Shown here in pieces: positions 26,860 to 31,472 of a stretch of DNA of 34,523 bases. Source of the stretch: Vicinamibacteria bacterium (GTDB lineage Bacteria; Acidobacteriota; Vicinamibacteria; Fen-336; JAGNNV01); contig JANLWV010000382.1 in NCBI GenBank assembly GCA_031364765.1, forward strand, positions 1 through 34,523, in the 5' to 3' direction. Numbering within the stretch: position 1 is the stretch's first letter; every line of letters begins with the position of its first letter. The notes under the pieces were generated by a model. That model was not told the origin of the DNA, searched no databases, and saw nothing but the letters and a program-made list of their open reading frames with translations. A program made the position numbers and the translations under genes.

Positions 26860-28097
26860 CTCAAGGAACTGCCGCTAGGATCCGTCGTCGCCGCCTTTTC
26901 CTCTCGTTGGGACTGTGTACCGCCGTCGCCGCAGCGTTTTTCGGCGAAACCGGGCCTCAGGCGCAGGCCCCGACAACCCTCAAGCTGCCCCTCAAGGACG
27001 GCTCAATCCGATTCGCCGTGATGGGCGACACGGGCCGCGGCGACAGCGGGCAGTACGAGGTGGCGAAGCAGATGGTCGCGTTCCACAACGAGTTCCCCTT
27101 CGACCTCGTGATCATGGCCGGTGACAACATTTACGGAGGCGACAGCCCTGCGGAGATGCGGTCCAAGTTCGAGACGCCCTACAAGCCGCTCCTCGACGCC
27201 GGGGTCAAGTTCCAGGCGAGTCTCGGCAACCACGACAACCCGAACCAGCGTTTCTACAAGCTTTTCAACATGGGGGACCAGCGCTATTACACCTTCCGCC
27301 CGCCCAAAGGGGGCGAGGTGCGCTTCTTCGCCATCGACAGCAACAACATAGACAAGCCGCAGCTCGACTGGCTGGAGAAGGAGCTTTCGTCGTCGACCTC
27401 GGACTGGAAGATCGCGTTTTTTCATCACCCGCTCTACTCGTCCGGCGGGACCCACGGCTCCTCGCTCGAAACGAGGGCGGCCCTGGAGCCTCTCTTCGTC
27501 AAGTACGGCGTGAGCGCAGTGTTCTCCGGGCATGACCACTTCTACGAGCGGATCAAGCCCCAGAAGGGCGGCATCGTGTACTGGGTGTCCGGCGCCGGCG
27601 GCTCGCTGCGCAAGGGAGACATCCGCGCCACGGACATGACGGCCAAGGGGTTCGATCGCGACTACCACTTCATGCTCGTGGAGATTGCCGGCGAGGATCT
27701 CTATTACCAGGCGATCAGCCGGACCGGAGCGACGATCGACAGCGGAGTGTTGCACCGTCCGGGCGCGCCGGCGGTCGTGGTGGCGACAACGCCCCCTCCT
27801 GCGCCTATTCCCGTCGCTCCAGCACCCGTTTCAGCCAAGGTTCCCGTGGTTGTGCCCGCGGTGTCACCGGCGGCCACCCCTGCCTCCACACCCAAAGTAG
27901 AAGTCGGAGCGCCCGCACCCTCTCCGACGCCCAAGCCGCTACCCCCGGTGGTGAAGAAGCGGCCTGTAGTGAAGAAGCGGCCAGTGGCGAAAAAGAAGCC
28001 CCCGGTGGTGAAGAGTCTCCCGACTCCATCCCCGACTCCACGTCCGACTCCGCGTCCTACTGCGGGCACCGACGGTCGAGGATCTGTGCCCGCTTGA
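26856..28097 (+). CDS. Exported calcineurin-like metallophosphoesterase (purple acid phosphatase-like) with Pro/Lys tail
   Basis: GDTG, GDNIY, GNHD, HHP and GHDH motifs; Arg-rich (RRRRLFL, Tat-like) signal. Confidence 0.9.
   Translation: MTQGTAARIRRRRLFLSLGLCTAVAAAFFGETGPQAQAPTTLKLPLKDGSIRFAVMGDTGRGDSGQYEVAKQMVAFHNEFPFDLVIMAGDNIYGGDSPAEMRSKFETPYKPLLDAGVKFQASLGNHDNPNQRFYKLFNMGDQRYYTFRPPKGGEVRFFAIDSNNIDKPQLDWLEKELSSSTSDWKIAFFHHPLYSSGGTHGSSLETRAALEPLFVKYGVSAVFSGHDHFYERIKPQKGGIVYWVSGAGGSLRKGDIRATDMTAKGFDRDYHFMLVEIAGEDLYYQAISRTGATIDSGVLHRPGAPAVVVATTPPPAPIPVAPAPVSAKVPVVVPAVSPAATPASTPKVEVGAPAPSPTPKPLPPVVKKRPVVKKRPVAKKKPPVVKSLPTPSPTPRPTPRPTAGTDGRGSVPA
27945..28060 (+). repeat. Coding repeats PVVKKR x3-4 and PTP(S/R) x3
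   Basis: 18-bp units CCnGTrGTGAAGAAGCGG followed by 12-bp units CCGACTCCn... Confidence 0.8.
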
Positions 28098-29154
28098 GTC
28101 TGAAGACATTGACCCACTCGTCCACGCTGGCGAGCGCACCGTCTTTTTCCGGGTCCCTGTTTGGGTCTGAGGAGCGGTGGTCCACCCGGGCATTTTCGAA
28201 GAGATTGCGGAGTTGGGAGTCGGTGAGCTGGACGAGCAGACTGGCGAGGAACGCCCGGCCCGCCTCGCTGATCTCCGGGTTGCCGAGGTTGCCGCTCAAA
28301 GAGCGCTCGAGCTGGGCTACACACGCGCCGCTGTCTTTCCACACCGGCACCCGCGTCCAGTTTTCGAGGCTTACGCTGTTCTCGTTCCTGTTCAGCCATG
28401 CGCCGCGGCCGAATGTGAGGCCGAGGTCCTGAACCATGAGGACGGGGGTTCGGCACCCCGTCCGTCCAATCTCCTCCCCTTCCGGGCAGAACAGGCGCTG
28501 GTTCGCGGCCTTGCTGTCGGTGTGCTGGACAAACGCCGCGAGTAGCTTGAGCGCATCGCGCTGGGCGCGCGCGGCCGGTGCGGCATCGGGGCCGATGTCC
28601 TCCAGCTCGGACCATTTCCATCCGGAGTCAGGACTCGTCTCCATAGCCCGCCCCGGCAACTTCCGCTCGATGGCCGCGAGGTCGAACACCGTCACATCAA
28701 CGGCCGTTCCCGGACTCTGCTTGGGATCGTTGGGGCAGGAATGGCAGCGGACGCGCACGGGATACATCCGGTCCGCTGCGAAACCCAGGGCCCAGAACAG
28801 ACGTGTGGCCAGCACTTCGCCGAAGACCTCGGCGTTTCGTTGTCCGTACTTGACCTTCACTCTCTTGCCTGGGCTTGTCTCGCACACGAACTTGGGCGAG
28901 TGGCCGCTGAGATCCTTCTCCGTGTATTCGCAAGTCACCAACTCGTCGAACGCAAACGCTCCGTCCGCGTTCGGGCCAGCCTTGAGGTCAACCTTGGGGA
29001 TGTCGGTGGGCGACCAGACAGAGGCGCGCCTGATGGCCTCCCGCCGTTCCTGAGGGGTGAGCGCCTCCCCGAACGGAAGGCGCTCGGTGTGGGCACATTC
29101 GCCGAGGGTAAGGCTCAGTCCGAAGAGGACTGCAGCGCCCCGCTTGGCGATCAA
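28057..29154 (-). CDS. Kinase-like lipoprotein paralog C
   Basis: TTG at 29154 with SD GAGG (alternative GTG 29175). LGEC lipobox-like sequence, VKVKYG, AEVFGE, HTDSKAAN and DLG. Confidence 0.8.
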   Translation of the reverse strand: MIAKRGAAVLFGLSLTLGECAHTERLPFGEALTPQERREAIRRASVWSPTDIPKVDLKAGPNADGAFAFDELVTCEYTEKDLSGHSPKFVCETSPGKRVKVKYGQRNAEVFGEVLATRLFWALGFAADRMYPVRVRCHSCPNDPKQSPGTAVDVTVFDLAAIERKLPGRAMETSPDSGWKWSELEDIGPDAAPAARAQRDALKLLAAFVQHTDSKAANQRLFCPEGEEIGRTGCRTPVLMVQDLGLTFGRGAWLNRNENSVSLENWTRVPVWKDSGACVAQLERSLSGNLGNPEISEAGRAFLASLLVQLTDSQLRNLFENARVDHRSSDPNRDPEKDGALASVDEWVNVFRLKRAQILDRRCPQ

Positions 29155-29198
29155 AGTGACCTCTGAAACAGGCACGGGTGAGGAGCCCAGAGCTCGGC

Positions 29199-30302: not shown

Positions 30303-30347
30303 GGTTCCATCTCGATCACTGCGCTTCCTCTAGAACGCCGCCAAGGT

Positions 30348-31472
30348 CTAGACGGAGCAGCGTCGGTCGACGATCTGGGCCCGCTTCATCTTGAAGGCCT
30401 TGATCCAGTCATCCACTCGGGCGAGAGCAGGTTCCTTTTCGGGATCGCTGCTTGGGTCTGAGGAACGGCGCTTGACGCGTGCGTTCTCGAAGAGGTCGCG
30501 GAGCTGGGCGTCGGTGAGTTGCACGAGCAAACCGGCCAGAAACGCCCGGCCCGCCTCGCTGATCTCTGGGTTGCTGAGGCTGCCCGTGAACGAGCCCTTG
30601 AGCCGCGCCACGCACGCCTCGCCGTCTTTCCACACCGGGACCTGGGCCCAGGTATCCAGACTCACGCTGTTCTTGTTCTGGTTCAAAAGATCGGCGTGAC
30701 CGAACGTGAGGCCGAGATCGCTGATCATGAGGATGGGCGCCTTACAACCGGTTTTCCCAACCTCCTGTCCTTCGGGGCAAAGCAGGCGCTGATTCGAGGA
30801 TTTGTTGTCCGTGTGCTGCACGAACGCCGCCAACAATTTCAACGCGTCGCGTTGCGCGCGCGCGCTCTTGACGGCCTCGGGCCCGATGCCTTCGAGCTCC
30901 GACCATTTCCAGCCGGAATCTCTCTTCGTTTCCATGCTCCGCCCGGGCAGTTTCCGCTCGATGGCCGACGGGTCGAAGACCACCACGGACGCCGCTCCCT
31001 CCGGGCCCTTCTTCGGATCCGTTGGACAGCCGTGACACTTGACGCGCACCGGATACATCCGGTCGGCGGCAAAACCCAGAGCCCAGAAGAGTCGACTCGC
31101 CAATACCTCGCCAAAAACTTCGGCGTTGCGCGGGCCGTACTTGACCTTCACTTCCTTGCCGGGGCTGGTCTCACAGGTGAATTTGGGCGAGTGACCGGAT
31201 TGTTCCTTTTCCTTGTATTCGCAAGTCACCCACTCGTTGGACGTGAACGCACCGTCGACATCGGGCCCGGTCTTGAAGTTCACGTTGGGGACGTTCGTGG
31301 GCGACCAGACCGACGCGCGGCTGATGGCCTCCAGTCTCTCCTTTTCCGTCAGGGCTTCCCCCGGCGGCAGGGGCTTCACGTGGGCGCATCCGCCGAGGGT
31401 CAGGCCGAGCCCGAGGAGGACAGCCGCGCTGAGTTTGAGACTTTGGGGCTCTCGGGCGGCAACCGGGGTCAC
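30348..31472 (-). CDS. Kinase-like lipoprotein paralog A
   Basis: GTG at 31472 overlaps the upstream stop (GTGA). Lipobox LGGC, VKVKYG, AEVFGE, HTDNKSSN and DLG. Confidence 0.8.
   Translation of the reverse strand: MTPVAAREPQSLKLSAAVLLGLGLTLGGCAHVKPLPPGEALTEKERLEAISRASVWSPTNVPNVNFKTGPDVDGAFTSNEWVTCEYKEKEQSGHSPKFTCETSPGKEVKVKYGPRNAEVFGEVLASRLFWALGFAADRMYPVRVKCHGCPTDPKKGPEGAASVVVFDPSAIERKLPGRSMETKRDSGWKWSELEGIGPEAVKSARAQRDALKLLAAFVQHTDNKSSNQRLLCPEGQEVGKTGCKAPILMISDLGLTFGHADLLNQNKNSVSLDTWAQVPVWKDGEACVARLKGSFTGSLSNPEISEAGRAFLAGLLVQLTDAQLRDLFENARVKRRSSDPSSDPEKEPALARVDDWIKAFKMKRAQIVDRRCSV

Follow-up and report, generated by a model that had tools for sequence, protein, structure and literature searches.

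Can a protein-kinase-like protein act as a phosphotransferase outside the bacterial cytoplasm, and if so, on what substrate and with which phosphate donor? The question is raised by three minus-strand open reading frames (ORFs) that lie head-to-tail at 28057..31472 of a 34,523-nucleotide contig from a sediment acidobacterium, a Vicinamibacteria bacterium (assembly GCA_031364765.1, contig JANLWV010000382.1, positions 1 to 34,523 of the forward strand). This whole stretch is hereafter called the window. A first-pass annotation had described the three products, here named paralogs A, B and C, as lipoproteins with a cryptic kinase-like fold. Few kinase folds act outside the bacterial cytoplasm, and the common view is that no ATP is present in the periplasm. 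The three genes are:

30348 to 31472, minus strand: paralog A, 374 amino acids (aa), with a signal peptide ending in the lipobox LGGC, followed by the kinase-like domain.
29199 to 30302, minus strand: paralog B, 367 aa, lipobox LGGC; this protein was used for the structure model.
28057 to 29175, minus strand: paralog C, 372 aa as listed, lipobox LGEC.

In the present study we describe the family to which these proteins belong, which, judged by its predicted structure, is a new exported branch of the kinase-like superfamily. We favour, with moderate confidence, the reading that its members are active phosphotransferases of the periplasmic side, controlled by sigma-54, whose substrate is likely a lipid or a lipid-linked glycan.

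Three tandem paralogs

The intergenic gaps A-B and B-C measure 45 and 23 nucleotides (nt), and pairwise identity among A, B and C is 71-74%. The motifs first reported for the tandem genes are all present and invariant across the three proteins, namely SG(H/A)SPKF, VKVKYG, AEVFGE, HTD(S/N)(K/R)xxN, DLG and CH(G/S)C, and besides the lipobox cysteine each protein has eight cysteines. Paralog A matches the family profile at E 1.4e-138, and a profile search over the six frames of the window and over the genome (92.6% complete) returned only these three family copies. The genes had been attributed to expansion by tandem duplication. The tandem arrangement stands; a recent duplication does not, because each copy has its own counterpart at 91-92% identity in other samples (P0031 for A at 91%, P0001 for B at 92%, and P0020 for C), so that the triplication is old. 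The counterparts of paralog C begin 7 codons further in than the listed start of C.

Predicted fold and placement of the motifs

An AlphaFold2 model of paralog B, computed from a 96-row alignment, reached a mean pLDDT (predicted local distance difference test) of 91.8 and a pTM (predicted template modelling score) of 0.90. Foldseek returned 32 hits for this model in the PDB at E<=1e-3, and the rows listed were kinases. The best was CtkA of H. pylori (TM 0.41/0.51, prob 1.0); other rows were PI4KIIalpha, HipA, VPS34, CotH, ATM/mTOR, actin-fragmin kinase and ordinary protein kinases. VIA-align, a structure search independent of Foldseek in which 48161 chains were compared with the B model, gave the following matches:

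CtkA (3akj/3akk): Z 12.2, 228 aligned, rmsd 4.3.
PI4KIIalpha: Z 11.1.
Fam20C: Z 10.8.
CotH: Z 10.5.
Golgi casein kinase: Z 10.3.
MavQ lipid kinase: Z 10.3.
HipA: Z 9.6 (range 9.0-9.6).

Fifteen chains reached Z>=8 (Z 12.2-8.2), spanning model residues ~44-367, and all 50 rows listed carried kinase or kinase-fold titles. On the model, the loop 79-87 and K88 lie between the first two strands, K100/K102 are in strand 98-103, and E109/E113 are in helix 108-122. H211-D213-N218 directly follows helix 195-208, and D243-L-G directly follows strand 238-241. The strand Lys, the helix Glu, the HxD...N loop and the DFG-type Asp are thus found in kinase order on the model, and they are conserved in the family. 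A comparison with protein-kinase-like (PKL) folds by AlphaFold and Foldseek had been proposed as the check on the first-pass annotation, and it bears the annotation out: the predicted fold is kinase-like, and both structure searches return kinase folds only. Assignment to the PKL superfamily, with two lobes, is supported at the level of the model.

Size and conservation of the family

With a word-indexed search, 1906 of the 8000 candidates that were scored proved to be relatives; the top 120 of these were 67-92% identical, all of them 'hypothetical' or unnamed and none with a Pfam domain. A profile search of 1.84 billion cluster representatives (50% identity) returned 1686 at E<=1e-3, of which 1175 reach <=1e-10 and 481 reach <=1e-30. 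The family occurs in 17 of 41 related genomes, often in 2-4 copies, and across the phylum in 22 of 151 genomes at E<=1e-5, with a patchy distribution.

Conservation was counted in an alignment of 96 diverse members, in B numbering, in which the rows other than close relatives are 31-49% identical to B. In the N-terminal part, K88 is kept in 95 members, K102 in 91 (with Arg in 3 more), E109 in 89, E113 in 87 and R118 in 95. The catalytic loop has H211 in 87, D213 in 95, K215 in 84 and Q219 in 89 members, and position 218 is Asn in 63 and Gln in 32. In the DLG motif, D243 is present in all 96 and G245 in 95. The candidate phosphotransfer set would comprise the Gly-rich loop with K88, the strand Lys K102, the helix Glu E109/E113, the loop H211-x-D213-x-K-x-x-N218 and a metal-binding D243-L-G. 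Because this full set is kept in kinase order, we read the proteins as probable active phosphotransferases at the periplasmic face.

The members could instead be non-phosphotransferases, either pseudokinases that bind a phosphorylated ligand or enzymes of another chemistry, such as AMPylation (SelO) or glutamylation (SidJ). This would suit a periplasm without ATP, the replacement of Asn218 by Gln in a third of the family, and the outcome of the sequence comparisons, none of which matched an active kinase family significantly; that the kinase fold hosts other reactions is stated in the accessible part of PMC10870513. However, K102, D213 and D243 are retained in 91-96 of the 96 members at the low identity given above, as is typical of catalytic residues, and Gln is still able to bind metal. 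We therefore consider a non-phosphotransferase family improbable.

Each of the eight cysteines is present in 94-96 of the 96 members. The His of the CHxC motif as first described, at position 138, varies among members, which leaves CxxCP as the conserved motif; the earlier count of eight conserved cysteines stands and the His drops out. All eight cysteines are retained in 335 of the 340 members covering every Cys column. Among the remaining five, one lacks C75 and C91 together, one lacks C137 and C140 together, and three lack a single Cys; the paired losses give thin but consistent support to sequential disulfides. Four disulfides, C75-C91, C137-C140, C223-C234 and C280-C365, are most likely.

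An N-terminal hydrophobic, signal-like stretch is found in nearly all of the 96 members, and 35 of them have a strict lipobox pattern (consensus L-x-[G/A/S]-C). In the 120 close relatives the lipobox is mostly L-x-G-C (LGGC, LCGC or LSGC). Export, as first proposed, agrees with these family-wide signal peptides and with fusions to the membrane domain PAP2 (see below). As for the proposal that all three proteins carry lipoprotein signals, A and B fit the lipobox by pattern only; the LGEC of C is atypical, with Glu at -1. LGEC is also found in the paralog C counterparts P0020 and P0041 (86-92% identical to C). For A and B, anchoring by a lipid on the lipobox Cys is probable.

Sequence comparison with named kinase families

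Paralogs A-C gave no Pfam match at E<=1, no PDB match in a sequence search, and in NCBIfam nothing beyond one chance-level match (E 0.17). In particular, PF00069 (eukaryote-type Ser/Thr kinase) had no match in A-C. PF00454, PF06702 (Fam20C) and PF08757 (CotH) had none in A-C either, and of the 33 families matched by the 96 members they do not figure in the top 25 by frequency; PF00454 had no match anywhere in the genome. The Pfam cut-offs for HipA-like kinases (PF07804 HipA_C and PF20613 HipA_2) were reached by no member, and HipA_2 was the only Pfam family matching more than 2 of the 96 (4/96, best E 0.0032, below the cut-off). Full-text literature searches found no description of the family, which, together with the Pfam and NCBIfam results, agrees with its earlier designation as undescribed.

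Profile comparison with hhalign against 12 Ser/Thr kinase domains of the same genome gave a probability of 0.5% over 31 columns, in a register that places QHxDxKxxNQRL...DLGxTFG of the family on HRDLKPAN...DFG of the kinases; against six HipA_2 domains the probability was 0.9%, with the same stretch on NVDRTxxN...IDHG. Neither result is significant. A bridging protein, an exported protein of 578 aa from another acidobacterium (L075:370-2106, minus strand), carries TPKF, NHDDSRALN and LDFGSTLG. It aligns to the family with 96.7% probability (E 3.7e-10, 172 columns), and has sub-threshold matches to HipA_C (E 5.8e-5, 23.3 bits vs a cut-off of 30.5) and HipA_2. This protein and another at L093:6012-7748 (plus strand) represent a second unnamed exported kinase-fold family, encoded in both loci directly after an Omp85-family gene. 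In a language-model search with the homologue P0050, all clusters at 0.98 were acidobacterial and unnamed; the closest ones bearing a name, which are leads only, were Fam20C (11% of members, 0.86), HipA_2 (0.83) and PI3_PI4_kinase (0.82). Taken together, the register, the sub-threshold links, the bridging protein and the language-model leads place the family as a separate branch near HipA/CtkA, PI4K and Fam20/CotH; it is a branch of the superfamily outside any named family.

These data also bear on whether the kinase-like motifs are a chance resemblance within an unrelated exported fold, a possibility that we regard as extremely remote. The hhalign probabilities of under 1% against Ser/Thr kinases and HipA_2 speak for it. 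Against it, two independent structure searches return kinase folds only, the motifs follow the order of a kinase and occupy the expected secondary-structure elements, and the bridging family, with a canonical DFG, aligns at high probability.

Fusions and the class of substrate

Fifteen long family members were found, 4 of which have a C-terminal PAP2 domain. One other observation among the 15 is P0176 (878 aa), with a subtilase S8 domain N-terminal to the kinase-like domain. A search with the PAP2 fusion P0126 gave 217 hits, with PAP2 in 100 of the 120 listed (44-67% identity). The fusions, of 480-730 aa, came from these searches; a wide-alignment search of proteins of 815-2325 residues found no fused forms. 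Three PAP2 fusions that were read have a signal peptide, a kinase-like domain with Gln for Asn218, and the intact PAP2 motifs Kx6RP, PSGH and SRx5Hx3D. Among NCBIfam models they come closest to undecaprenyl-diphosphatase, LpxE and PgpB, in each case with a score far short of the cut-off. In bacteria, PAP2 enzymes have lipid phosphates as their substrates and work on the outer side of the inner membrane.

The known systems nearest in structure compare with the family as follows. CtkA, the best structural match, is a secreted kinase of H. pylori and itself exported. HipA-type kinases (4pu3, 5k98) provide the sole recurrent, though sub-threshold, Pfam signal in the family, and the bridging protein matches both the family and HipA_C/HipA_2; HipA proteins are, however, cytoplasmic toxins of toxin-antitoxin pairs without signal peptide, eight cysteines or PAP2 fusion, all three of which are found in the family. 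PI4KIIalpha (4pla) and MavQ (7m7a) are of interest as the PAP2 lipid-phosphate link of the family fits a lipid kinase, and PI4KIIalpha owes its hold on the membrane to an attached lipid, which would equally be true of a lipoprotein. PI3/PI4-type lipid kinases and MavQ are cytosolic and ATP-dependent, whereas the family is exported and lacks PF00454. Fam20C, Golgi casein kinase and CotH (5yh0, 4kqa, 5jda) are kinase folds outside the cytosol, and Fam20C is disulfide-bonded. The motifs of the family differ from those of Fam20C and CotH, it has no Pfam match to either, and to our knowledge a lipoprotein signal, CxxCP and a PAP2 fusion are not known from them.

The nearest published description found is that of SEAE1 of Segetibacter (WP_147203046.1), a newly reported bacterial family described, in the accessible part of the source, as an intracellular putative lipid kinase with a kinase fold and no significant Pfam match (bioRxiv 10.64898/2026.09.18.752743). 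As far as that description goes, it resembles the family in having lipid-kinase structural neighbours and an adjacent PAP2 gene, and the D-to-N spacing of the catalytic loop is equal (D216/N221 in SEAE1, D213/N218 in the family). The Lys-to-catalytic-Asp spacing differs (76 in SEAE1, 111 in the family), SEAE1 has D241-x-D243 where the family has D-L-G, and the same part of the source mentions no cysteine set; the two were compared by description only.

The structural matches would also allow the proteins to be extracytoplasmic protein kinases acting on envelope or secreted proteins, like Fam20C in the secretory pathway, CotH in the spore coat, or CtkA. The seven best structural matches include these three and Golgi casein kinase (Z 10.3-12.2), the Lys of the HRDLKxxN pattern is kept in most members, as counted above, and one long member has the N-terminal subtilase domain. 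However, the lipid kinases PI4KIIalpha and MavQ score equally well, and the fold cannot tell the two classes apart. What recurs as a fusion partner is a lipid phosphatase and no protein domain, no conserved candidate protein substrate is found nearby, and the ATP problem is the same. We hold protein kinases to be an unlikely solution, and for the favoured phosphotransferases the most likely substrate would not be a protein but a membrane lipid that bears phosphate, or a lipid-linked glycan.

A sigma-54 promoter and a small membrane protein upstream

Control of the operon by sigma-54 had been proposed from a promoter at 31723. The features concerned are:

31723 to 31738, minus strand: sigma-54 type -24/-12 element CGGCACGGCCTTTGCT, 32 nt upstream of a small ORF.
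31469 to 31690, minus strand: the small ORF, encoding a 73-aa protein with two predicted membrane helices, which leads the operon.
12380 to 13753: NtrC-type sigma-54 activator, by Pfam.

The sigma-54 consensus is TGGCACG-N4-TTGCW, from which CGGCACGGCCTTTGCT departs by 1 mismatch. The stop of the 73-aa ORF overlaps the GTG start codon of paralog A (GTGA). The small protein has the conserved loop YGGFxYTKDTD...GPI...VxDKExVNxPLWAG, its sole Pfam match is a sub-threshold DUF202, and 12 aligned sequences show 79% mean column identity. A co-fold of paralog A (residues 30-374) with this protein had a score of 0.00 and a mark of 0.32 and is uninformative on binding.

Twenty-two related loci were found with a close alignment, all from Acidobacteriota/Vicinamibacteria. 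In 14 of them the 73-aa ORF immediately precedes the family gene, and 2 of the other 8 are without upstream DNA. Of the 14 loci having the small ORF, 12 show a promoter match (>=10/12 specified bases) at a distance of 26-60 nt upstream of it, which is 26-29 nt in 10 of these 12; the two loci without a match are L027 and L029. In L036 the small ORF is absent, yet a 12/12 site is found upstream of the family gene. Terminator-like sites between the operon genes were none beyond chance. Among RNA runs, none was listed as containing the locus. The 31723 site is thus real and conserved, an activator is encoded in the window, and dependence of the operon on sigma-54, as first proposed, is supported by these sequence comparisons. 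The promoter would drive one operon for the small two-helix membrane protein and the three lipoproteins, which would be secreted via their signal peptides, with A and B anchored in the membrane and all braced by the four disulfides.

Across the window, the promoter pattern with <=2 mismatches occurs 15 times against 4.9 +/- 2.1 expected, and 0 of 100 shuffles reach 15. Sigma-54-type sites are found at 6075, 8783, 19089, 19160, 21074, 23252, 23766, 31723 and 31909, among others, several of them apparently intergenic by their coordinates; the genes concerned include those for Omp85, BON, Transgly_assoc, an M48 peptidase, a Gly-zipper protein and a response regulator. The middle of the window encodes hybrid histidine kinases and KaiC together with the NtrC-type activator. 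Dps, BON, OmpA, M48 peptidase, Transgly_assoc, PLD-like, phosphoesterase and patatin-Omp85 proteins are also encoded in the window. By its sequence, the whole window looks like one sigma-54 stress and envelope island, and the activator would switch the operon on along with this block of envelope and stress genes.

Gene neighbourhood and the phosphate donor

Four plus-strand genes converge on the operon:

23995 to 24816, plus strand: DUF4956 membrane protein, by Pfam.
24813 to 26168, plus strand: PLD-like protein with two HKD motifs, by Pfam; its tail has ~170 residues of Lys/Ala/Glu repeats, and the gene overlaps the DUF4956 gene by 4 nt.
26185 to 26859, plus strand: exported 224-aa protein.
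26856 to 28097, plus strand: exported calcineurin-like phosphoesterase with an Arg-rich signal and a Pro-rich tail, overlapping the 3' end of paralog C by 41 nt.

This convergent four-gene operon (23995-28097) is treated as context rather than as an established part of the system. The same set (DUF4956, PLD-like, exported protein, phosphoesterase) recurs beside the family gene in related loci, as do, near it, genes for PLD-like, patatin-Omp85, BON, caleosin and GGDEF-EAL proteins. Among close relatives, the family gene is convergent with the phosphoesterase gene in 6 of the 12 loci scanned, in addition to the window. Genes for exported PTP-type phosphatases stand beside other family copies. 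The neighbourhoods of the lower-GC loci L087, L088 and L090-L092 were left out.

Of the 17 related genomes having the family, 10 have a DUF4956 gene <=6 kb from a family gene; these span six genera, with kin among them not independent. It is also found beside adjacent PKL and PPK1 genes in the more distant G074 and G116, and there is no DUF4956 adjacency in G095, G176 and G185. PPK1 directly adjoins a divergent family gene in L085, L086, L094 and G116 (G116:C33:38981-42360), four genomes that represent three genera of one taxonomic family, with the gene order PKL-PPK1-DUF4956 in L085 and PPK1-PKL-DUF4956 in G116. In six other genomes with PPK1 the gene is non-adjacent, and in three further genomes checked PPK1 was not found. 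A possible relation of the PLD-like neighbour to PPK1 was set aside, as the likeness is weak (24% over 215 aa, E 0.011 in one comparison), and no claim is made.

Several further neighbours were observed. At L089:6003-11488, three family genes adjoin genes for a beta-propeller phytase and a Ser/Thr kinase. Two loci have, close to the family gene, a gene for a caleosin-like EF-hand protein (L030:7078-8019 and L037:2216-2857); caleosins are chiefly known from the lipid droplets of plants. Upstream of the operon on the other strand, 32219-34411 (plus strand) encodes a protein with a signal peptide in which a patatin phospholipase is joined to an Omp85-type barrel; between it and the operon sits a small gene for Transgly_assoc (31940-32215), and a patatin-Omp85 gene is also found beside the operon in L033 and L039.

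The neighbour and fusion associations point to phosphate-bearing lipids as the business of the family, while a polyphosphate donor would be more speculative. For such a donor, the available part of one preprint describes a gene set, located beside pel loci, in which CotH is joined by DUF4956 and a polyphosphate polymerase (bioRxiv 10.1101/768473). On that description, the CotH gene set and the family are both accompanied by DUF4956. DUF4956, VTC and CotH match in the same three of 14 control genomes. From the PPK1 adjacency, the DUF4956 proximity, this published gene set and the co-occurrence in control genomes, it might be supposed that the family, and by analogy exported CotH-type kinases, are ATP-free kinases outside the cytoplasm, which would take phosphate from polyphosphate or a lipid pyrophosphate, passed through the membrane by a dedicated set of partners, either DUF4956 with a polyphosphate-forming or PLD-like enzyme, or the fused PAP2. 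We consider this doubtful. A functional analogy is offered by LpxT, described in the accessible part of PMC2229476 as a PAP2-family periplasmic lipid A phosphotransferase that takes phosphate from undecaprenyl pyrophosphate, not ATP. The PAP2 domains fused to the family belong to the same superfamily as LpxT; the likeness is one of function only, as LpxT differs in fold and chemistry, with a phospho-histidine phosphatase fold in place of a kinase fold.

Weighing the proposed role

Catalysis, substrate class and phosphate donor are all inferred here from sequence and model, and a number of observations weigh against active sigma-54-controlled phosphotransferases that act on lipids or lipid-linked glycans. 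The TM-scores to the best structural hits are modest (0.4-0.5), and every sequence-level link to named kinase families is below significance, so the fold call rests on predicted structure. The metal-binding Asn218 is replaced by Gln in 32 of the 96 members, the PAP2 fusions included. Paralog C has its Glu outside the usual lipoprotein signal rule. The idea of a lipid substrate comes from the fusions and the neighbourhood only, and these neighbourhoods vary by lineage: DUF4956 is absent in five genomes of one taxonomic family that have 2-6 family copies each, which counts also against the ATP-free donor. As the periplasm is generally considered to be without ATP, there is no obvious donor for an ATP-dependent kinase there.

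Implications

A large exported family (1686 clusters), apparently braced by disulfides and with a conserved catalytic set, poses the question of the phosphate donor outside the cytoplasm directly. It also offers handles on function, in the natural fusions to lipid phosphatases, the polyphosphate and phosphoester neighbours, and a clean sigma-54 switch. If inactive, the proteins would represent a widespread exported pseudokinase. If active, they would extend the enzymes known to modify the envelope of soil and sediment bacteria by a new class, and the kinase-like superfamily by a new branch. Should the ATP-free reading be true, the sigma-54 island of the window would be a stress programme for the phosphorylation of lipids or glycans in the envelope.

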